DNA of 64,000 nucleotides from assembly GCF_006345805.1 (NCBI RefSeq), contig NC_043002.1, forward strand, positions 91,450,001 through 91,514,000. Reading direction: 5' to 3'. Source of the stretch: Octopus sinensis. Its lineage: Eukaryota. A program made the translations under genes and the position numbers. Shown here piece after piece: positions 3,662 to 62,925 of the stretch (position 1 is its first letter; each line of letters starts with the position of its first letter). The notes below the pieces were generated by a model. That model worked only from the letters and a program-made list of their open reading frames with translations. It searched no databases and was not told where the DNA came from.

Positions 3662-4362
3662 GGAGGGAGAGAGAGCGCGAAAGGAATCAGACAGAGGTAT
3701 GAATATCTGTAGAAGGAACTGCGTTGAGAGAAGCTCTAATGCCGATTTCCTTTCCGTTTTCGGAGATTTTATCCGAATCTTAATTTCTAATACAGGAGGA
3801 GAGGCAAAGTTGATTAAAATGACTCCAGTGCTGAAGTGGTATTTATTTTATTGACTCTACAATGATGAATAATAAAGTAAATACTGGTTTGATTTGAACG
3901 CAGAACGCTTAGGTATGCACTAAGTACTACATTAAAATGTTTCAATACTTACTGATTCTGCAAATACCACCCACCCCTCCATTTGCTCATAATACTGATT
4001 TTTTTTTTTTTTACCGTAGAGACATGACCTCAGATTTCGAGGTTGGAAATAGTTGATTATATCGAGCATTGCACACGACAGCGATAACATTTAAACATAT
4101 AATCTAAATAGTAGTATCAAAAGTATTACAAAATATTTGTCTGATGCCCAACCAATATCCACAGCCCATCATCTTCCTGTTCATCACAAAGTTGACTTTA
4201 CTAAAACATAAAAGCAACTCCATCTGCTTCTGTAATACGTCCAAACGGTTCAGGATCCAATCACGAGGAAAAGGATTAATACAGCAGTCAGGATTACGAC
4301 AGCGGGGTATTTCGATTTTCGTACGTGCTTCCATACATACTTACATATGTCTGCGTATATAT

Positions 4363-4669
4363 ATCACGTGATCACGTGACCGACCAGACCATCAGATGTT
4401 GCTACACATCGCTGGTCACAATGCGTTCGCATTGTTTTAGCCTTCGAATGACGCCACCCCGCTGGCTAAGCGAGCAGGCCAACAGAAGAAAGAATGAGAG
4501 AAAGAGTGGTGAAAGAGTACAGCAGGGATCACCACCCCCTGCCGGAGCTTCGTGGAGCTTTTAGATGTTTTCGCTCAATAAACACTCACAACACCCGGTC
4601 TGGGAATCGTAACCGCGATCCTACGACCGCGAGTCCGCTGCCCTAACCACTAGGCCATTACTCCTCCAC
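4363..4669 (-). mobile_element. tRNA-derived SINE (family 1, tail type B)
   Basis: Same head as 1370-1747 but a different 3' half ending ggtcacgtgatcacgtgat. Confidence 0.9.
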
Positions 4670-4813: not shown

Positions 4814-5022
4814 TAGTTAATCCAAACATGAAAACACAAAGAGAAAACACAACAACGCGAGGACGTGGAACAAGTATAGTATTATTGGACGCTCAGGAAA
4901 GAAGGAAAGAAGGAGGGTTTAACGTTTCGAGCGGAGCTCTTCGTCAGAAACATAGGAAAAGGAAAGATCCAAAGAAGGGAAGACGGAGGAAAAACATCGC
5001 CAACGGTACACACGCGGTCACG
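4814..5022 (-). mobile_element. Short non-coding repeat with hammerhead core (family HH-A; Penelope-like LTR/retrozyme-like)
   Basis: Homologous copy at 36683-36858; contains a CUGANGA/GAAA core; flanked by microsatellites. Confidence 0.7.
4917..4951 (-). ncRNA. Minimal type I hammerhead ribozyme motif
   Basis: Minus strand GUUU-CUGACGA-A-GAGC-UCC-GCUC-GAAAC-GUU-AAAC: stem I GUUU/AAAC, stem II GAGC/GCUC, palindromic ACGU stem III. Confidence 0.75.
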
Positions 5023-5036
5023 TATGATTGTGTGAG

Positions 5037-8445: not shown

Positions 8446-8465
8446 TTAATAATAATAATAATAAC

Positions 8466-8525
<60 letters not shown>

Positions 8526-8526
<1 letters not shown>

Positions 8527-9077
8527 GATGCACTACCAGGCAGTGGCTCTCATGGCTTCTGATCTTAACTGATTGGAAGTGTTATCATGTACATTGTTTT
8601 CTCTTTGTATAAAAGATGGGCTACAGCAAATATTCTGCTCAATACCACAGATTTGCTTGTCAGTTGTTTGACCATAACAAGTTGAGCATGTCCCTTAGTG
8701 GCTGACGATATGTGCATCTCTGATCACGAGCAGAAGTAGTGGGGGAGTATCATAGCCATGTGTTGAGAGGGATTCTTTGGGGTTTAAATAATTCACCTCT
8801 GGAAACATGGGTGGTTCTTTCAACATCCTTAAACAACCCTTATTCAGGGACCTTTTGAGCAGGATGGGCCACTCAACCTGAAGAAAATTCTAACTGGGCC
8901 CCACCTGCAAGGTCATGTGCTGTTTATCTTGATATGAGATCACCATGTCGCGCACATATGGTTGTGATGCATGTGCCTGGTGTACCCTTATCAGACGGGT
9001 AGTCATGATGGGTATATTGGGCTTCGTATATTTTACACCAGTGTCACTTTGATGGCATGAACTGCTCTCTCACTCAA
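8526..9077 (+). mobile_element. Non-coding retro-element or LINE 3' region embedded in (AAT)n
   Basis: Flanked on both sides by (AAT)n; homologous inverted copy at 10868-11212. Confidence 0.65.
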
Positions 9078-9765
9078 TAATAATACTAATAATAATAATA
9101 ATGATAATAATAATAATAATAATAATAATAATATAATAATAATAATAATAATGATAATATATTTAACGACTGAACTCTGATTTCCGAGCGTTTTATCTCT
9201 CGGTGTCGCTAGAATAATTACCAGTCAAGTATTGGGTTCGATCTAGTCGTTTTACTCCTCTGTCAAAAATCGATGGCCTAGTGCCAAGCTTAGAAAATCA
9301 TTTTCCATTTCCTCAAACAATGACAGCCATCATCTAATAAGCACATTATACGTCATAGAATAACAAGTCAGACCTTTTAGTTTGACCTGCAGTACATTCA
9401 TCGAAGTTCAAATATTTCCACTGGAATCTCACTCTAACGTGACTTATATACAACACGACCACTTCACATCTTAATAGCCAAACTTTTTCATTTCACTTCT
9501 ACTACCGCCTCCTTCTGGTTATTCTTCATTCGTAACTTTTATTTCTCTGCTTTGTACTTTAACCCCGCTCCCCCTTTATTTTCACTCTCTTGTTTTGTAG
9601 TCGTCCTCATACCTCCTTTTTTCCTGTTTTTTCTCTTGATATTTTCGGTTTTTCTTGTTCTTTTGGTGCTTGATAATAATAATAATAATAATGATGATGA
9701 TGATGACGGTGATGATGATGATGATGATAAATATTAATAATAATAATAACAACAACAACAACAAC

Positions 9766-10834: not shown

Positions 10835-10867
10835 TTATTATTATTATAATAATAATTATTATTATTA

Positions 10868-11212
10868 TTGGGTGACAGTGCAGTGCATGCCATCAAAGTG
10901 ACACTGGGGTAAAATATACGAAGCCCACCATACCCATCATGACTACGCGTCTGATAACGGTACACTAGGTAAATGCTTCACAATCATATGTCCGCGACAT
11001 TGGGAATCTTATTTCATGATAAACAGCGCATGACCTTGCAGGTGGAGGCCTAGTTAGAATATTCTTCGGGTTGAGTAGCCCATTCAGCTCAAAAGGTCCC
11101 TGAATATGGGTTTTTTAAGGATGTTGAACGAACCACCCATGTTTCCAAAGATGAATTATCCAAACCCCAAAGAATTCCTGTCAACACATGACTATGATGA
11201 TCCCCCACTCTT
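10868..11212 (-). mobile_element. Second copy of the 8526-9077 element
   Basis: catgccatcaaagtgacactgg...aaaaggtccctgaata is the reverse complement of part of 8526-9077. Confidence 0.7.
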
Positions 11213-11258
11213 TCTGAATATTTGCTGTAGCGAATCTATTATTGTTATTATTATTATA

Positions 11259-24120: not shown

Positions 24121-25150
24121 GGGCGGCGAGCTGGCAGAAACGTTAGCATGCCGGGCAAAATGCTTAGCGGTATTTCGTCTACCGTTACGTTCTGAGTTCA
24201 AATTCCACCGAGGTCGACTTTGCCTTTCATTCTTTCGGGGTCGATAAATAAAGTACCAGTTACGCACTGGGGTCGATATAACCGACTTAATCCGTTTGTC
24301 TGTCCTTGTTTGTCCTCTCTGTATTTAGCCCCTTGTGAGTAGTAAAGAAATAGGTATTTCGTCTATCGCTACGTTCTGAGTTCAAATTCCGCCGAGGTCG
24401 ACTTTGCCTTTCATCCTTTCGGGGTCGATAAATTAAGTACCAGTTACGCACTGGGGTTGATGTAACCGACTTAATCCGTTTGTTTATACTCTCTGTATTT
24501 AGCCCCTTGTGGGTAGTAAAGAAATAGGTATTTCGTCTGCCGCTACGTTCTGAGTTCAAATTCCGACGAGGTCGACTTTGCCTTTCATCCTTTCGGGGTC
24601 GATAAATTAAGTACCAGTTGCGTAATGGGATCGATCTAATCGTATGACCCACCCACCCACCAAATTTAGGACTTTGTGCATAGAGTAGAAAAGAATCGTT
24701 AGAACGTCGGGTAATAATGCTTAGCAGTATTTTGTCCGTTCTTACATTCCAACTTCAAATCCCGGTGGAATTGACTTTGCCTGTCATCCTCTCGGAATCG
24801 ATAATGAAATACCAGTGAAACACTGGGGTCGATGTAATCGTCTAGCTCCTTCACCCAAAATTACAGACCTTGTGCCTTTGGTAGAAAGGATTATTATATC
24901 TTCTTTCTTTTCTTCTTTTCTTCGTTTTTAAAGGCGGTGGCCTGGCAGAATTGTTAGCACGCTGGACGAAATGCTTAACTTTATTTCGCCCATTGCTACG
25001 GTCTGAGTTCAAATTCCACCGCGGTCGACTTTGTCTTTCATCCTTTCGGGCTCGATAAATTAAGTATTAGTGAAACACTGGATCGTTGTAAACGACTAGT
25101 CCTTTTCGCACAAAATTTCGGGCCTTGTGCCTTTAGTAGAGAGGATTATT
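24121..25150 (+). mobile_element. Head-to-tail cluster of about five SINE family 2 units
   Basis: Repeated central domain; junctions aaagaaata|ggtatttcgtct at 24352 and 24526. Confidence 0.85.
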
Positions 25151-30555: not shown

Positions 30556-32066
30556 TATTTCTTTATTGCCCACAAGGGGCTTAACATAGAGGGAACAAAG
30601 AAGGACAGACAAAGGGATTAAATCGATTACATCGACCCCAGTACGTAATTGGTACTTAATTTATCGATCCCGAAAGGATGAAAGACAAAGTCGACCTCGG
30701 CGGAATTTGAACTCAGAACGCAACGACAGACGAAATACCTATTTCTCTACTACCCACAAGGGGCTAAACACAGAGAGGACAAACAAGGACAGACAAACGG
30801 ATTAAGTCGATTATATCGATCCCAGTGTATAACTGGTACTTAATTTATCGACCCCGAAAGGATGAAAGGCAAAGTCGACCTCGGCGGAATTTGAACTCAG
30901 AACGCAACGACAGACGAAATACCTATTTCTTTACTACCCACAAGGGGCTTAACATAGAGGGAACAAACAAGGACAGGCAAACGGATTAGTCGATTACATC
31001 GACCCCCGTACGCACTGGTACTTAATTTATGACCCTGAAAGGATGAAGGCAAAGTCGACCTCGGCGGAATTTGACCTCAGAACGCAACGGCAGACGAAAT
31101 ACCTATTTCTTTACCACCCACAAGGGGCTAAACACAGAGAGGACAAACAAGGACAGACAAACGGATTAAGTCGATTATATCGATTCCAGTGCGTAACTGG
31201 TACTTAATTTATCGACCCCGAAAGGATGAAAGGCAAAGTCGACCTCGGCGGAATTTGAACTCAGAACGCAACGACAGACGAAATACCTATTTCTTTACTA
31301 CCCACAAGGGGCTTAACATAGAGGGAACAAACAAGGACAGGCAAACGGATTAAGTCGATTACATCGACCCCAGTACGCAACTGGTACTTAATTTATGACC
31401 CTGAAAGGATGAAAGGCAAAGTCGACCTCGGCGGAATTTGACCTCAGAACGCAACGGCAGACGAAATACCTATTTCTTTACCACCCACAAGGGGCTAAAC
31501 AGAGAGGACAAACAAGGACAGACAAACGGATAAGTCGATTATATCGATTCCAGTGCGTAACTGGTACTTAATTTATCGACCCCGAAAGGATGAAAGGCAA
31601 AGTCGACCTCGGCGGAATTTGAACTCAGAACGCAACGACAGACGAAATACCTATTTCTTTACTACCCACAAGGGGCTTAACATAGAGGGACAAACCAAGG
31701 ACAGGCAAACGGATTAAGTCGATTACATCGACCCCAGTACGCAACTGGTACTTAATTTATGACCCTGAAAGGATGAAAGGCAAAGTCGACCTCGGCGGAA
31801 TTTGACCTCAGAACGCAACGGCAGACGAAATACCTATTTCTTTACCACCCACAAGGGGCTAAACACAGAGAGGACAAACAAGGACAGACAAACGGATTAA
31901 GTCGATTATATCGATCCCAGTGCGTAACTGGTACTTAATTTATCGACCCCGAAAGGATGAAAGGCAAAGTCGACCTCGGCGGAATTTGAACTCAGAACGT
32001 AACGGCAGACGAAATACGGCTACGCATTTCGCCCGTGTGCTAACGTTACTGCCAGCTCGTCACCTT
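30556..32066 (-). repeat. Tandem array of 8 SINE family 2 units (~184 bp), inserted in another family 2 copy
   Basis: Units start at ~30556, 30741, 30925, 31105, 31289, 31472, 31653 and 31836; only the last carries the complete head. Confidence 0.92.
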
Positions 32067-36682: not shown

Positions 36683-36857
36683 AGTTAATCCAAACATGAG
36701 AGCACAAAGAGAAACACAACAACGTGAGGACGTGGAACAAGTATAGTGATATTGGACGCTCAGGAAAGGAAAGAAAGAAGGAGGATTTAACGTTTCGGGC
36801 GGACCTCTCCGTCAGAAACATAGGAAAAGAAAATCCAAGGAAGGGAAGTCGGAGGGA

Positions 36858-36858
<1 letters not shown>
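36683..36858 (-). mobile_element. HH-A element, second copy with mutated hammerhead core
   Basis: Colinear with 4814-4992; core reads CUGACGG and stem II has mismatches. Confidence 0.7.
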
Positions 36859-36994: not shown

Positions 36995-37456
36995 CACACA
37001 CACACATACACGCGCGCGTGCGCACATACACATTTGTCTCTGATGTTCAATTACTTCTGTTTGCACAATTTCTTCCCCCCCCCTTTTTACAAATTCTCTC
37101 GGCCTCTGATCAGATGTTCTCCTTTCGTTTTGGATGCATCTATGTTCTTAAGGCTGCTGGAAATAAGGTAGGACAATTGCTATGCTATTGACACTGATGC
37201 CGTCCTTTTCCTTAATGTCATGTCAGCTTTGCAGAAATGTTTATAGCTGAGATTGTCTCCCCTTCTGATATGGATCTGGTCCCAACTGCTATTTGGTAAC
37301 TGGGACACACCCTCTTGAGGCAGAGATAATTTTAATGAAATCATTAATTTATGCTGTACGTTATTGGAAATATCTGTATTTGTGTATGTTGTTCATACAT
37401 ATCATTAGTTACAAATTCTTTTTCATGGCACTTTTGTTGAATACGTACATAGATAT

Positions 37457-37769
37457 ATCACCGTGATCACCGTGACCGACCAGGCTATCAGATGTTGTTA
37501 CACATCGCTGGTCACAATGCGCTTCGCATTGTTTTAGCCTTCAAATGATGCCACCCTGCTGGCTAAGCGAGCAGGCCAACAGAAGAAAGAGTGAGAGAAA
37601 TTTGTGGCGAAAGAGTACAGCAGGGGTCGCCACCACCCCCTGCCGGAACCTCGTGGAGCTTTTGGTGTTTTCGCTCAATAAACACTCAGAACGCCCGGTC
37701 TGGGAATCGAAACCACGATCCTACGACCGCGAGTCCGCTGCCATAACCACTAGGTCATTGTGCCTCCAC
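37457..37769 (-). mobile_element. tRNA-derived SINE (family 1, tail B)
   Basis: Colinear with 4363-4669. Confidence 0.9.
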
Positions 37770-43970: not shown

Positions 43971-45500
43971 TCACAGGCGAAACCTGAGAATTGGTCCATT
44001 TACACTGGCCATTCTTGCACAATTCACCCACCTTTTAGAAAACTTGCTATCAGCCAGCACTCTCCTCTCTAACCTCATTTTCCTTTTCAAGTGAAACTTG
44101 AAAAAGTTGATGAGGCCTTGACCAAAGAGGAAAGTGTCTGACTTTAGCCCTTTCAAACGTGTCCACCATACAACCTCTTTCGCCACAGCCACTAAGGTAC
44201 AGGAAAACGGCCTTGCCCTCCTTGTTAAAGGAGGTCGGCGGGGCAATCTTCACTGTGGATTCAGCTGATAGCCGGATCCGTCCTATACGTGACAGTAGCT
44301 GTTCGACATAAACCCATAGTTCAGCAATATTCGGGCACTGGACGAGTGCGTGCAGAACGGTTTCGTCGTCCTGGCAACACTTCGGGCAGGCCCGGCTGAT
44401 GGCACTTCGGTGCCGGTTGAGTTTATCCCGTACAGGCAGAGCCCATCGGTAGCACTGCCAGACGAGCGACCTCTGAAAGTTATCCATTGGCCCCGGCCCG
44501 AAAGTCCTTCCGAATAGACCGCTCAGTTCGTTATCATCAACGCCTAGAGTTCCCCCGAGAACGTCGTTGCATTTTTCCTCCATTAACCCTCTATAGAACG
44601 CTAGAGTGGAACTAACACCGATCGCATTGCCCGCCTGGCGGAGGGTGGAGAGAGCTTGACGGCACTCAAAGTGCCAAGCGCCCTTTCTCGGTCTACGTTT
44701 GATCTAGGTCTGCAGCTCTGTCAAAGGGACGAGCTGCGGAAAGTCGCGTCTGACAAAAGACGACCACACTTGTTCACCGTCTAGGAAACGCTTGAGATGT
44801 CGCAGCCTGAGCGCATGTCTGTGCATCAGTAACCACGGCATGCCAAGGCCTCCGTTCAGCGGTCGTTGACAGCAGCTGCCTTGAGAACAGCTGCCAAGTA
44901 CCGATGGTCGACCCTATCGAAAGCTTTACTCTGATCTAAATTGATAAAAGCCCCACCCGCGCCAGCGTCGTTACACACCCTCTCTATGATGTAGCGCATG
45001 AGATGGAGGTTGTCATGTGTCGACCTGGTCGGTACGGCGCATCTCTGCTTCTTGCCAATCAGATTGTCCACGACAAGCGCCAATCTCTTGGCTAGCACCT
45101 TGGCCAAAATCTTCAACTCTGCATTGAGCAGAGTGATGGGCCGAAAATTCCCTATAATGTCCCCTTTGTTTGGGTCCTTTTCTAGCAAAGCCACCACCCC
45201 TCGACAGACAAAAGCAGAAATTCTCCCGTTTTGCTGCCAGTTGCAGTAGACGTTTGCCAACAGGCCCGCAAACAGGTCTGGCATTGAAGTGTAAAGCTCG
45301 TAGGGCGATCTACCTCTCGTGCAACTCTTCATTGCTTCCTCCACTTCCCAGGCAGATATCGGTCCCTCGCAGCACTCTGCCTCGCTGTCCGAGAGTTGCG
45401 GTAGGCCGTCCAGGTACACACCGAAGTCTTTACCGTTGTTCGTTGCACCGCTCGTCCCAAACAGTTGAGCAAAGTGCCGCTGAAACACCGCAGCTCTCCT
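43971..45500 (-). pseudogene. Tx1-like ORF2 remnant (partial RT + zinc-finger tail)
   Basis: ORF pieces 44856-45884, 44050-44583 and 43971-44246. Confidence 0.85.
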
Positions 45501-45748
45501 GATCCAGAAAGGGGATGGCTGTCGGGTCCGCTTCAGCAGCAGGGCGAAAAATTGTTGGTTCTGCTGGTAGCGGTGGTGTTGCTGTATCTGTTGGTGATGG
45601 TGACGGTGTCGGTGATTCTTCTTCTTCCTTTTTTTGTTGTTGGTGTTTTTCTTGGTGCTGGGGTTGGTGTTGGTTTGGTGGTTGGAGGTGTTGTCGTTCG
45701 TCGTGGTGGTGGTAATGGTGTTGGTGGTGTGGCAGCCTTTGGTGTTTC

Positions 45749-46868
45749 TTACTGTTGTTGTTTCTGTTGTTGTTGTTGTTGATGTTGTTGTTGCTGCTGC
45801 AGCTTCTTGCCTTCTGCCTCCATTCTTTTTTTGTAAATGGGACAGTCCCACTTTAGGTGGCTTTCGCTGCTGCAGAGGTAACATTTTGGCTTTCGCCCCT
45901 CCACAGCAACGTGCAGCCTGGTTCCGTCCGGCAAATTTACCGAGTCAGGTATGGCATTAATGTTTTCCTGCTGGATTTTTCCCAGCAGTTGAACTCCCAT
46001 ACCTGACCAGTTTTTTTCCCTCACTCTTCGTACATCTAGAATAGTGGCAGTGTCCTCTATGTCATAGAGGACAGCCGCCACCAGCCATGATATATTTAGT
46101 TCGGGGGGTACTGTGTCGATTTTTATTTTTTGGACCCTCCGCCCGAGGTATGTTGGAACAAGGAACAGATTTTCATTTTGCAAGGGCGAAATGGCATGCG
46201 CCCTTGCATCCTCCTCTGTTGGGAAGCGAACCTCCACAGTTCCGAAACGCTTCCCTCTGGTGACATAGCTCTTTTTGCCCCATATGGGCTTCAGAACTAT
46301 TTCCAATTGTTGGGGTGTTGCGTTGATTAATCTTTTGTTTTTCTTGTCGAAAACCTTGTAAAATATCGTCTTCTTGTTTGTGTCATGTATGAGTTGTTGA
46401 GGTGTATTGAGGAAAACACTGTTTCCCTATGTTCTCAACAACTCCTTTGCGCTTTTTATTTGGTCCATCGTAACTTTTACTTCCTCCGAGTTTTCTTTTG
46501 CAGCGGAGGCAAAATTGCTACGATGGCTTGTTGTGTTGTTTGCTGGTGGTGGTGTCGGTGTGGCTGCTGGTCATTTTCTTTGCTTCTTTCTCCGGTACTG
46601 GAGCACTGGTGGAAGGAAGAGAAGGCAAATCTTCGTTGACGTCAAAGGTGACGCCATCGTTGTCGCTTTTCTTTGCAACGCTCTTTCTTCCGTCCTTCCC
46701 CGGTACTGGAGCACTGGTGGAGAGAAGAGGAGGGAAATCTTCGATGACGTCAAAAGTGACGCTTTCGTTTTCATTTTCATTTAGAACGTTGAACGTGCTG
46801 ACACGTTCCATCGAAACATTTTGTTTGCCTTTTAAGGCACGAAATGGGCGGTTTGGAGAAATGTTCAA
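45749..46868 (-). pseudogene. Tx1-like ORF1 (gag-like, zinc knuckle), frameshifted
   Basis: ORF segments 46518-46868 and 45749-46306; VEGRKPKCYLCSSESHLKWDC. Confidence 0.75.
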
Positions 46869-50530: not shown

Positions 50531-51354
50531 AGAGAAAAGAGAGAAAAAGGAAAGAGAGGGGAGACGCACACAAAAGAGAGATAGAAATATAAACAAACGA
50601 GATAAAATTATAAACAAAAAATTTAAATATGAATCAAATAATATAGATTCGTAACTTGAATGACAAACTTGAGAAAAGCTGTTCACTTAATCAGCCTTTA
50701 TAATTAGTTCTCAATTGACGAGACGTGAAGCAATGAACGGGCAAGTGGGACCGTGGTCGAATCTGGACTTAAAATATATAAAGGAATGAATTCTGTTTTA
50801 TATTCTATGAAAGCCAGAAGTGTCAGGACTTTTATCTTTTGTAAGGTTACCCAGGAGATTGAGGTATTGTTTAAATATATTTTAGTTGATCTTATAAGAG
50901 AGAAAAAATGTGACGATCCTCTACGTTATAGTTCCATATACGAGACATAGCAGGTTTGGATAATGTGCCTAGAAAGAAGGACAAGATGATAAGATCAGAG
51001 CGCATTTCATCGAGGCCGAACACAAGCAGTATAACGTTTTGCAGAAAAATTGTCCGAAATTTGCAGGCGAAAATATTACTGAAGTAGTTTATTCACGCAG
51101 GTTTGGTGTTGGTAGTTCAAAGGAACGGAATTTATTGAGGCAGCGAAGTATGAGGTATAAAGATGAAACAGTTAGTCTGCAAGCCAATGATTACAATGTG
51201 TTGATGACTAAATCAATCAGGTGAATTGCCTAGCTATGCGCCATATTAAGGCTAACTGATGAGCTAAACAAAGCGTTTTTTTTTTCCGAGCTCTACTGAT
51301 TGGGCGAATCTACTACGATTGTCTTCTTGTTTATGCCCCTGTAACACAGATACG

Positions 51355-51565
51355 AAGGAGGTGAGTTAGCAGAATCGTTAGCACGCCAGACAAAGTGCTT
51401 AGCGGCATTTCGTCCGCCTTGATGTTCTGATTTTAAATTCCACCGATGTCGACATTGTTTTCCGTTCTTTCAGATACAATGAGTACAAGCTGGCTGCTGG
51501 GATCGATGTAATTGACTATCCCCTCCCCACAAATTCCAGGCCTTGTGCCTATAGTAGAAAGGATT
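51355..51565 (+). mobile_element. SINE family 2 with alternative tail ending in (ATT)n
   Basis: aaggaggtgagttagcagaatcgttagc...ggccttgtgcctatagtagaaagg. Confidence 0.75.
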
Positions 51566-51623
51566 ATTATTATTATTATTAATTATTATTATTATTATTA
51601 TTATAAGCACTTTATTATTATTA

Positions 51624-51772
51624 TTCAGGTCACTGCTTGAAATCGAAGTCGGAACCTTGGGATTAGTAGTCCGTGCTCTTAACCACTACGCCCATGGGCA
51701 TATAGCGTAGTGGTTAAGAGCGCGGGCTACTAACCCCAATATTCCGAGTTCGATTCGAGGCAGTGATCTGAA
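51624..51772. repeat. Head-to-head palindromic pair of tRNA-like units
   Basis: Each arm has an A box (gcgtagtgg), an anticodon-like loop ctactaa and a B box (gagttcgattc); second instance at 62446-62595. Confidence 0.85.
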
Positions 51773-51794
51773 TAATAATAATTATTATTATTGC

Positions 51795-51828
<34 letters not shown>

Positions 51829-51889
51829 GCTGTTGTTGTTGTTGTTGTTATTATTATTATTATTATATTATTATTATTATTATTATTAT

Positions 51890-52035
51890 ATCATCGAAAA
51901 ATACCTTAGGAATGAGACCCCAGGTTCGAAATTTTCCAGGACAACTGATGAATGCTGGAGAGTACATCAGCCGAAACGTTGGGTTAACAATAAACAAGAC
52001 GAGGAGAAATCCTTTAAATGTAAATAATGTACAAT
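51890..52035 (+). mobile_element. Hammerhead-bearing short element (family HH-B), degenerate
   Basis: ctgatga-a-tgctg...cagcc-gaaac-gtt at 51945-51980; homologous minus copy at 62270-62388. Confidence 0.65.
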
Positions 52036-52039
52036 TTCA

Positions 52040-53200
52040 TCACTGCATACATATTGGACAGTCCCGTCCGACGGAAATTCCGTGCTTGCAGAGTTTATCT
52101 CGAACCAGTAACGCACTTCATTGCACTGCCAGGCCAAAGACACCAAGAAATTATTGAACGATCCAAAAGTACTCCCAGACCGACCAACCAGTTTGTTTTC
52201 ATCGACGTTCAGTGATTGCTGAGAATATCGTCTCTCTTTCCCTCTATAGATTGCGGGAGCGGAATGTCTACCGATCTATTGGACGCATGTTGAAAACATT
52301 CTTGATGTCAGGTGCCCAGTTTCGATCTTTGCTTCATCCAAGAAAGCAACCACTTCAGAGATGAGCTACGGAAATATTTGCCTCCCGAACACTGCCCAGG
52401 AATTTCTCAAAGCGACGAAGCTGAAGTGTGCCTCAACAAAGGCGTAATGCCCAGTCTACAGTACTCAGTGTATAGACAGCAGATAGAAAGCTAGACCAGT
52501 GAAATGCGTCTCTACCACTAGAATTCGAAGAACAGACTTTCCAATTAGATTAGGTGCTAAATGGACCAAAGTACAACGGTTAAAATGTAGTTTATGATGG
52601 AGGTGATGTAAGCGTTCGCCACCTTCATTCGAACTTTCAGAGACAACTTCCTCTCATCTCATTTCAAGGTAAGATTTACCGCCCTCTTCGTCCCTTCGGT
52701 TTTGTTCCGGTCCACCTGGTGGTCGGTGTTTACCAGAAACTGAGCAATTTAATCAGTCTGTCGGTCCAATCTAGTGTCGTCAGTGTCGAGTTGTTGCTCC
52801 AGTTATGAAGCTTGTGAAACCACCGACTTGTCCAAGTTCGTGTTTGCTCTTGCCACAGATTCGTTTACCTTCCAAGTGGTGTCGACCACCTCCACTCAGG
52901 TGATATGAAACACTATGACTCTGACATCCTCTGCATATGTCAGCATAACCCTCAATCTCCTACCTCTAAAAGGATGTCAAAAGTTTCAGCTTCCACAGTA
53001 GACACGAAAAGAACCTCTTGAAGGTCCGAACAGCGAAACAGTTCTGAGAGGTGACAACCGAGCAGATGCTGCGGTGCATTGCAGCAATCCAGCCCCTAAA
53101 CACAAGGCAAAATCGACCACTTTCAACACAGTCGTCAAACAAGCACGCTCGATCATATCTGATGTTTTCGACTGATTTAAACTTGTCATAGCTTCACCAA
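52040..53200 (-). mobile_element. Old degraded Tx1/L1-clade ORF2
   Basis: LNQSKTSD (cf. LDQSKAFD), FRGWIAAMH, TYAEDV (cf. YADD), SLAWQC. Confidence 0.65.
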
Positions 53201-57514: not shown

Positions 57515-58417
57515 CTATACTGTGTAGTTGTCAAACTCAAACACAATAATTAATAATTGTTATTCGAGTAGCAGCTATAGAACTATAGCTTTGTATTAGT
57601 CTTGTTTTGGCAAGCATAGATACTTTAAACCGTAACACGAGGAACTTTCTCCAAAACATTATGTATTACATAATGCTTTATGTATTATACATTGCGGAGT
57701 CGCACATCCAACGGATATAGACTCCCAGAAAAAAATGGTAGTAGTCTATTAGTTTGATTAAAACCCTTCAAGGCGGTGCCCCAGCATGGCAGCAGTTTAA
57801 TACCTAAAACAAGCAAAAGATTATATCTAAAACTAAACGAGACATCCACTTTAAATAAATACAAAGATTATTAAAATGGCTATAAAGAGATCATTTTATT
57901 AATCATATTCATAAATGAATGAATGGAATCATTTTATAATTGATTTCAACTCCTGTAATGACTAATACCCTTAATACCCTTAATACCCTGAATTCTGCAC
58001 CGACACCACTTTCTACTATAAACGCACGCATGCATACGCACACACATATACACATACTCTCAATTTCTTTATAGTTTAATTCCGAACCTTCTTCTTTTGA
58101 CATCTTTTTCACTTACACAATTTTACCCTTAATAACCTTACATCCACATCTAGTAGTAGTTTTTTTTTATTCATTATATAGCTCCTTTCTCTTCAACTAA
58201 AGTTTATAAGGGAAATTTGGATTTTTTAAAATATAGGTCTAGAATTGTCCACGAAAAACTAAATGTCAATCTACCTATGTATCGATAAATCTCTGTCTTT
58301 GTGTTGCCTATTTGTCTGTTTATCTGTTGATCGCTCTGTCTCTGTCTTTCTCTCTCTCTCTCTGTATATATATACATATATTATATATATATATATTATA
58401 TATATATATATATATAT

Positions 58418-58714
58418 ATCACGTGACCGACCAGACCATCAGATATTGTTACACATCGCTGGTCACAATGCGTTCGCATTGTTTAAGCCTTCAAATGATG
58501 CCACCCCGCTGGCTAAGCGAGCAGGCCAATAGACGAAAGAGTGGGAGAAAGAGTGATGAAAGAGTACAGCAGGGATCACCACCCCTGCCGGAGCATCGTG
58601 GAGCTTTTAGGTGTTTTCGCTCAATAAACACTCACAACGCCCGGTTTGGAATCAAAACTGCGATCCTACGACCGCGAGTCCGCTGCCCTAACCACTGGGC
58701 CATTGCGCCTCCAC
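58418..58714 (-). mobile_element. tRNA-derived SINE (family 1, tail B)
   Basis: Colinear with 4363-4669. Confidence 0.9.
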
Positions 58715-58725
58715 ACCACACACAC

Positions 58726-58769
<44 letters not shown>

Positions 58770-58830
58770 ATATATATATAATATATATATATATATAATA
58801 TATATATATTATATATATATTAATATATAG

Positions 58831-59099
58831 GTGGAGGCGCGCAATGGCCCAGTGGTTAGGGCAGCGGACTTGCGGTCGTAGAATCGCGGTTTCGATTCCC
58901 AGACCGGGCGTTATGAGTGTTTATTGAGCGAAAGCACCTAAAGCTCCACGAGGCTCCGGCGATCCCGGCTGTACTCTTTCGCCACAACTTTCTCTCACTC
59001 TATCTTCCAGCTGGGTGGCGTCATTTGAAGGCGAATATAATGCGACCAGCGACGTGTGTAGCAACATTTGATAGCCTGGTCGGTCACGGTGATTACGGT
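58831..59099 (+). mobile_element. tRNA-derived SINE (family 1, tail B), inverted relative to its neighbour
   Basis: gtggaggcgcgcaatggcccagtggttagggcagcggact...ggtcggtcacggtgat. Confidence 0.9.
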
Positions 59100-59398
59100 T
59101 ATATATATATACATACACATACATACACATACACATACAAACATACATAATCATATTTTCGTATACGAAATTATATAAGAGTACATTCATAATTACGTAT
59201 ATATATCAAAAGAAATTGTCACCAAAACAATGAAACAGATTGGTGATTATCATCCAAGGTACAAAGTGACTCTACGACGTTTAGCTTGTGAGAAAAGTTG
59301 TCTTCTCATCACAGTACACCGTTGAAATGTTAATAATGGTGGCTTTCAATAGCAACCGATAAAGAGTGATGCAGGAAATGTTGTGATTAATACGCACA

Positions 59399-61917: not shown

Positions 61918-62269
61918 GTATATATATATAGGTATATAGATGCCAGCTCAGCCGAATAGCTGAAAAGTCTCTTTCACAATCTTGAAATTGAGATTTATCC
62001 CCACTCGCGCAATATCTTGAGCAAGACAACACAACTTCGTTCGACCTTAGCCTTGTATCTGAAATTGGTTAAACGCAAACTGTGTGGAAAGTACGTTGGA
62101 TCCACTGTACCTTCAGTATTTTCGCATGACTTACAATTATGTTAAGGCTAATAGTAATAGTTGCACATACACCTAGACAACACATCATGGAAACCAAAGT
62201 GATGTGTATATTATAATGATATGCACCTGTATAATATTAAAATGTAAGTGAATGTAGTACATATTATAT

Positions 62270-62388
62270 TTAAGAGATGAGGAATTATGTACATTATTTA
62301 CATTTGACGGATATTTGCCCTGATCTTGTTTGTTGTTAATACAACGTTTGAGCTAATATACCCTCCATTCTTCATCAGGTGTATTTTT
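62270..62388 (-). mobile_element. HH-B element, second degenerate copy
   Basis: Minus strand tacac-ctgatga...caaacgttgtatt...gtaaataatgtaca. Confidence 0.65.
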
Positions 62389-62389
62389 G

Positions 62390-62436
<47 letters not shown>

Positions 62437-62445
62437 CATTATTAT

Positions 62446-62595
62446 ATTCATATATCGGCCTGGAATCGAACTCGGAATCTTGGGGTTAGTAGCTCATGTT
62501 CTTAACCACTACGCCACGGGCATATGGCAAAGTGGTTAAGAACGTGGGCTACTAACCCCCAAGATTCCGAGTTTGATTCCAGGCAGTGACCTGAA
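62446..62595. repeat. Head-to-head palindromic tRNA-like pair, second instance
   Basis: Homologous to 51624-51772. Confidence 0.85.
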
Positions 62596-62925
62596 TAATA
62601 ATAATAATATTAATAATAATAATAATAATAATAAATAATGTATGTGTATATATGTTTGTTTATATGTATAGTCATGTATGTAAGTCCGCGCGCACACTTA
62701 TATAAAAGTTTTCCTTCATGTATAATCATGTATAACAACAAACATCAAATGGAAATATTACTCAATAGCTTTCAATTGAGTAACGTATATATATATATAT
62801 ATTGTATTTGCGAGGAAATGATTAACATTGAATACGAATTTTCGGGAACTAACCTTCATAGGACTAGTAGCTAATTCTAAACGCAGAATAGCCGTAAACA
62901 CGTAAACACATGCGCGCGCGTGCAC

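Follow-up and report, generated by a model that had tools for sequence, protein, structure and literature searches.

SINEs are defined as parasites of LINEs, and tRNA-derived retroposons of octopus, named OK, OR1 and OR2, were reportedly described by Ohshima and Okada in 1994. Of these, OR2 is cited as a CORE SINE. Insertions of Penelope-like elements (PLEs) are of a different type: in the accessible portions of Arkhipova 2013 (PMC3846280) they are described as carrying a 31-bp tail on one inverted pLTR, TSDs of 8-10 bp and palindromes at head-to-head junctions, and Craig 2021 (PMC8557442) agrees on this insertion structure. The same two sources state the origin of the inverted ends and one-sided tails as open. 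PLEs also contain minimal hammerhead ribozymes (min-HHRs), whose cleavage is weak and requires a dimer, and Schistosoma has dual min-HHRs on opposite strands, separated by 100-700 bp; in the available text of that paper, dispersed motifs are ascribed to truncated PLEs and no tRNA-headed family is named (Cervera and de la Pena 2014, PMC4209133). In Sm-alpha and Sj-alpha of Schistosoma, a tRNA-derived head, apparently transcribed by Pol III, is followed by a hammerhead, and the elements reach 10^4 copies (PMC2770079, PMC6765202). Animal non-LTR retrozymes are short, non-coding, carry a type I hammerhead and are thought to use PLE enzymes (PMC7229834; bioRxiv 2026.07.22.740005), and MRC1 is likewise a short non-coding element thought to use PLE enzymes (PMC8557442). 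Pol III heads on LTR elements are also on record (PMC10886601).

The sequence described here combines features of these systems. We hold it quite probable that it is a non-autonomous retroelement of about 280 nt, present mostly as two outward copies within one TSD, likely transcribed by Pol III and likely inserted by PLE enzymes. Four features of a non-autonomous PLE are observed, namely the inverted pair, the one-sided tail, the TSD and the minimal hammerhead. Like the PLE pLTR insertions, as far as these are described in the portions at hand (PMC3846280, PMC8557442), it has inverted copies that meet head to head, a tail of 31 bp restricted to one of the arms, a palindrome at the junction, 5′ truncation and a TSD of about 8-10 bp, whereas the element has no ORF, a tRNA-like Pol III head replaces the TATA/Inr promoter, and no direct tandem pLTR occurs in the element loci examined. 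The nearest precedent for a tRNA head joined to a hammerhead is Sm-alpha, but that element is tandem and cleavage-defined: its units stand head to tail, its active hammerhead cuts, and its promoter lies at the 3′ end of the cleaved unit, while the present element forms inverted pairs, starts at the head and keeps the hammerhead internal. Retrozymes differ in being tandem repeats with circular RNA intermediates, and no tRNA head is described for them in the available text. Like OK, OR1 and OR2 as cited, the element is tRNA-derived. The literature search, which had Repbase, Dfam and subscription papers outside its range, found no tRNA-headed element with Penelope-type integration, and the accessible parts of three cephalopod repeat papers do not mention the element.

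The 64,000-nt stretch of DNA analysed (the window) contains two loci of the element, whose parts are listed in Table 1. The host genome, that of an animal and, judging by its repeat content, likely an octopus, is 2.72 Gb, with plentiful microsatellites and SINEs. At locus 1, a palindrome at 51625-51771 with arms about 82% complementary has a folding energy of -105.8 kcal/mol (z -18.4; not reached by any of 200 shuffles), and an A box, CTACTAA and a B box can be read directly in each arm, the left-arm B box with two changes. A module CTGATGA...GAAACGTT at 51945-51980 points away from this palindrome. Locus 2 is its mirror image, with a palindrome 85% identical to that of locus 1 and a minus-strand body 79% identical to the locus 1 body. 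These results agree with an earlier note made on this DNA, which had claimed a palindrome of two head-to-head tRNA-like units, an outward-pointing CUGAUGA...GAAAC module and a second, mirror-image trio; it ended locus 1 at 52035, and the element continues through a degenerate tail to about 52061.

The left head of locus 1 begins 11 nt short, at about tRNA position 9, and its spacer is fused with the (ATT)n in which a SINE lying upstream and unrelated to the element (51352-51560) ends. The right spacer consists of a few AAT units followed by (ATT/GTT)n and is thus mostly reversed relative to typical copies, and the locus 1 body diverges by about 13% from the column majority. One of the two bodies is gone at each window locus, and the remainder of the right-arm body of locus 2 appears to have been deleted. 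No clear TSD was found at either locus, and no copy of the right flank of locus 1 was found upstream.

Table 1. Parts of the element at the two window loci.
Feature	Position	Strand	Basis
Left-arm (AAT)n spacer, locus 1; body absent	51563..51624	-	sequence reading
Left-arm tRNA-like head, locus 1; B box damaged	51625..51692	-	sequence reading, alignment
Right-arm full head, locus 1 (3-nt leader and tRNA-like region)	51693..51771	+	
Right-arm boxes, locus 1	A box 51703-51713; B box 51747-51757	+	
Internal microsatellite spacer, locus 1 right arm	51772..51891	+	
143-nt body (Penelope pLTR-like), locus 1	51892..52031	+	alignment
Minimal type I hammerhead motif, damaged, locus 1; predicted cleavage after 51980	51940..51985	+	
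Degenerate 31-nt tail, locus 1 (tailed arm of the pair)	52032..52061	+	
Tailed body with damaged hammerhead, locus 2; first 50 nt deleted	62265..62382	-	
Left-arm (AAT)n spacer, locus 2	62390..62445	-	
Head-to-head junction, locus 2	62456..62594	.	
Parts of the locus 2 junction	minus head 62456-62515; leader 62516-62525; plus head 62526-62594		
Right-arm (AAT)n, locus 2, with last 11 nt typical of a tail-less body	62595..62642	+	

Searches of the same genome (40 of 3439 palindrome candidates and 40 of 3700 body candidates scored) and an unbiased sample of 100 evenly spaced 10-kb stretches (1 Mb) define the unit. The element is a monomer of about 280 nt, consisting of a tRNA-like head, an internal (AAT)n, a 143-nt body with a minimal hammerhead, and a 31-nt tail; by alignment, the head divides into an 11-nt start and a 68-nt remainder, and the (AAT)n is variable in length. 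The palindrome is the head-to-head junction of two separate copies that are both full length. Of 30 palindrome loci, 22 are flanked by bodies on both sides, seven have a body on a single side and one has none, and the direction of the bodies is always outward. The 1-Mb sample holds eight loci with a body, of which six are two-armed, six have a head and one has a complete double head, so the full palindrome is a minority outcome. No direct tandem of whole units was present in 58 search loci or in the 1 Mb of samples. Extrapolation from this sample gives about 2x10^4 insertions genome-wide (Poisson range 0.9-4.3x10^4), with bodies differing by 3-7% from the majority. An older sister family (L192-L220), found through a stray match in locus L060, has a related head, the same hammerhead type, a tail and the inverted-pair layout, with unique sequence in place of (AAT)n in the middle.

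When the head was compared with 15 distinct tRNAs, the best alignment was with the genomic tRNA-Arg(TCT) (score 58 versus a shuffle maximum of 41), and Lys(TTT) and Thr(TGT) scored 52; the parent tRNA may be Arg, Lys or Thr. ARAGORN did not call a tRNA in the head. In the full arm, 3 nt precede the inferred tRNA position 1, as would be expected of a Pol III start, and the element is likely transcribed by Pol III.

Near the 3′ end of the unit lies a minimal type I hammerhead, and the column majority of 84 genomic bodies fits the published features of PLE min-HHRs: an extra nucleotide between 9 and 10.1, G10.1-C11.1, a palindromic 15.2-16.2 and a short helix I, with a helix II of 5 bp instead of the 7-8 given for PLEs (PMC4209133, available portions). 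The majority is the same as the ancestral fold, RACAC CUGAUGA...GUGUU, that had been reconstructed by comparing the two window copies, and the damage claimed for each copy is evident, since G10.1 and helix I are broken at locus 1 and G12 is changed at locus 2. A search of Rfam returned no hammerhead or tRNA match, its rows being hairpin and microsatellite noise. The hammerhead is intact in 20 of 101 bodies, and no selection on the hammerhead of inserted copies was detected in this set, the core positions decaying almost as fast as the rest (3.2% versus 4.2%). The fold of the whole 174-nt body was no better than that of shuffles (z -0.13). A different family of about 210 nt is found within (TA)n/(CA)n at 4816-5030 of the window (minus strand), with a second copy at 36684-36858 and 14 matches in the 1-Mb sample; it has its own minimal hammerhead at 4947, lacks a tRNA head and is probably a further non-autonomous derivative of PLEs.

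The pairs were analyzed in 46 two-arm loci, taken from 57 search loci and the 1-Mb sample. The 31-nt tail is present on one arm only in 43 of the 46 pairs (including L060, a false pair with a sister-family copy), on both arms in one and on neither in two. The PLE layout of an inverted, 5′-truncated copy joined head to head is thus represented by 46 two-arm loci, and by six of eight loci in the unbiased sample. The model finds a single arm at 18 further loci, several of which have an inverted stub made up of the tail only. Flank stretches of at least 10 nt are shared in 17 of 43 pairs, one of which is a TA run, compared with 1 of 1806 mismatched pairs, and stretches of at least 7 nt in 26 of 43 compared with 134 of 1806; the other 17 of the 43 have no shared stretch of 7 nt or more. 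These TSD-like repeats are 10-14 nt long and consist of unique sequence. The 3′ end is not of the LINE type, with neither poly-A nor a tandem tail, and the element is terminated by the unique 31-nt tail. The pairs carry the published Penelope insertion signature of one-sided tail, TSD and junction palindrome. One exception (L123:8930-9620) is a tail-less pair with about 170 nt of flank duplicated in inverted orientation, for which fold-back copying is the better fit.

The junctions bear on how the pairs form. In 34 double-head loci, one arm has the 11-nt start and the other starts at about tRNA position 9. The longer arm, with the leader, is the tailed one in 8 pairs and the tail-less one in 18 (undecidable in 8), and truncated pairs likewise show both phases. 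Because either arm can be the longer one, the pairs likely arise anew at each insertion. A single palindromic master is disfavoured because it would fix the phase, and the occurrence of leader and tail in both phases already speaks against a simple fold-back of the tailed cDNA, which would always leave the tail-less arm the shorter. Two cDNAs, one per target nick and joined through microhomology, would fit both phases. Arms of the same locus have non-CpG variants in common (19 in 42 pairs of bodies, 15 in 37 pairs of heads) about twice as often as arms from different loci do (7/2000 permutations for bodies, 3/2000 for heads), which could reflect a common template and also gene conversion between arms.

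From the observed anatomy, pairing, tail asymmetry, flank duplications, phase and copy density, we infer the following route. Pol III would start about 3 nt before tRNA position 1, and a Penelope RT/GIY-YIG protein would bind the 3′ end of the RNA, where a hairpin of 9 bp is predicted to close within the tail, and would nick both target strands about 10-14 nt apart. One nick would prime at the RNA 3′ end and give the tailed arm; the other would prime about 31 nt inside, at AAATAATGT, and give the tail-less arm from the same or a sister RNA. A template switch at a microhomology of 1-3 nt would then join the heads of the two cDNAs, producing the double-head palindrome when both had reached the 5′ end and a truncated junction otherwise. 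The hammerhead would be inherited from the pLTR of the partner; its cleavage is predicted to require a dimer, and the copy ends would not be set by it. Read-through transcripts across a pair would form long hairpins subject to A-to-I editing.

The autonomous partner was sought among the GIY-YIG PLEs, which are abundant in this genome: searches with the GIY-YIG family and with one PLE protein returned 5029 and 6233 candidates, and 150 of each were scored. Neither the body nor the tail of the element was found in the 80 GIY-YIG loci obtained from these scored candidates (roughly seven families), and two of the families have their own, different hammerhead ends. None of 20 further copies of the 3′ end of one PLE family matches the element, and the only matches of a tail-only model in 1.4 Mb were the two non-autonomous families, the element and its sister, together with a single old relative that scored weakly. 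The consensus libraries accompanying PMC13282606 or PMC8557442 may already contain the element family or its partner. Among the autonomous PLEs, two young families (L271-L290 and L291-L320) have distinct minimal hammerheads downstream of the ORF, and one young family has a (TA)n end and 98-100% identity between its top copies.

The linkage of head and body must be weighed against the possibility that the head palindrome and the hammerhead module are independent elements with (AAT)n as their common target, a reading with some appeal since there are 106 (AAT)n arrays per Mb and other elements do enter the spacers, as LINE-like ORF fragments that we take to be Dong/R4 have done at L002 and L149. 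Co-occurrence beyond such a shared preference was the check proposed in the earlier note, and in the unbiased sample a same-orientation body lies within 300 nt of seven of eight heads, in fixed order and orientation (P about 3e-10 versus the shared-(AAT)n null, 5e-6 when side and strand are ignored; the count omits L150, a head fragment without spacer or body). The body of the eighth head is separated by a 2.1-kb nested insertion. The TSDs are of unique sequence, and because none of 44 tailed ends adjoins (AAT)n and the sister family joins head to body without it, the (AAT)n spacer is an internal part of the element and not an insertion target. The reading as independent elements is thus refuted and keeps practically no probability, and head and hammerhead body form one non-autonomous element, as the note had held. 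The note had further regarded the palindromic double head as a built-in module, so that a single element would carry a bidirectional Pol III head and one hammerhead module. The junction is indeed stereotyped, with a gap of 10-11 nt in 30 of 34 double-head loci; its exact pattern gave at least 20 matches versus 0 for the reversed control, and the 10-nt form keeps a full A box on both arms. But a complete double head occupies only one of the eight unbiased loci, bodies flank both sides, leader and tail occur in both phases, and the points of junction truncation are many. In most of the sampled insertions there is a single head or a junction that is truncated. A built-in double head or bidirectional promoter is not supported, and this largely refuted reading is now very improbable. 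Missing bodies are often due to other elements inserted into the spacer, or to deletion.

Joining of two copies could also be mimicked by a foldback or MITE DNA transposon of the Mutator-like type, with long inverted repeats derived from a SINE and a TSD of about 10 bp. Mutator elements have TSDs of about this length, and the long inverted arms and the flank repeats of 10-14 nt would suit such an origin. However, the very termini are not inverted repeats, one end having the 31 extra nt, truncation can fall on either arm, the ends without a tail are uneven and show a 9-mer duplicated by slippage, and single-arm copies occur; we consider a DNA transposon unlikely, and decidedly so. There is a similarly slim chance that the element is a LINE-dependent SINE that captured a PLE hammerhead, its pairs arising by L1-like twin priming or by later fold-back. 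The tRNA-like head, the lack of a PLE partner in the 80 GIY-YIG loci and the abundance of RTE and Dong-R4 LINEs reported in available text on octopus genomes speak for it. On the other side, a poly-A or tandem-repeat tail is absent, and the one-sided 31-nt tail is, in the portions of the PLE literature at hand, a PLE hallmark. The arms overlap in sequence, unlike the segments of L1 twin priming, which do not, and copies of a conventional tRNA SINE from these samples mostly stand alone (34 matches in sample and window). Two outward copies inserted by PLE enzymes remain our preferred reading.

Words of the element were present in sequencing runs of six organisms. In two raw RNA runs from one carrier species, 7273 and 5987 reads came from the body, from both strands equally, and about 77% of them continue into unlike flank; this RNA looks like read-through. 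No pile-up of read ends was found on the body, the part covered in two ordinary RNA-seq runs (head not covered), and these reads lend no support to a discrete Pol III transcript or to cleavage. At a threshold of at least 5%, A>G changes occurred at 15 sites in each of the two runs, and T>C at 10 sites in the first and 11 in the second; the corresponding counts in 100 genomic arms were 3 (among 62 A) and 4 (among 36 T), whereas C>T and G>A occurred at 9/9 and 9/8 sites in the RNA versus 16 and 13 in the genomic arms. At 19 listed sites the frequency was 11.1% in RNA versus 32/1862 (1.7%) in genomic arms, the sites having been picked in the RNA and the species possibly differing from that of the window. 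The A>G and T>C excess is editing-like, relative to a comparator of genomic arms unmatched to the RNA. The animal group of the host is known for heavy RNA editing, and the pairs may be a sizeable source of double-stranded, edited RNA.

With about 10^4 short, well-assembled pairs, the formation of Penelope inverted ends becomes testable. We regard it as an even question whether the element represents a class of SINE that has a PLE instead of a LINE as host, built from a tRNA promoter and a pLTR end and spread in at least two waves, whose pairs reveal that inverted ends come from two cDNAs at two nicks and not from one self-primed strand, and in which each pair is an A-to-I editing substrate like inverted Alus.

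Other repeats of the window and the samples were noted alongside. A conventional tRNA-headed SINE lies at 58384-59120, where (CA)n(TA)n separates two copies that face each other with their heads (58714/58831), and also at 1568-1747, 4345-4669 and 37449-37769. Tandem arrays at 30556-32017 (8 x 184 nt) and 24169-24639 (2.6 x 174 nt) are the internal part of an abundant SINE. LINE-like ORF fragments sit in (AAT)n, including the element's own spacer, at L002:1680-2600 and L149:3690-5480, and an element of about 640 nt or LINE-like ORF fragments lie within (AAT)n arrays at 8449-9079 and 10866-11216 of the window. The sole GC-rich stretch of the window contains a 362-codon open frame (44859-45944, minus strand), which is probably the opposite strand of a coding exon.
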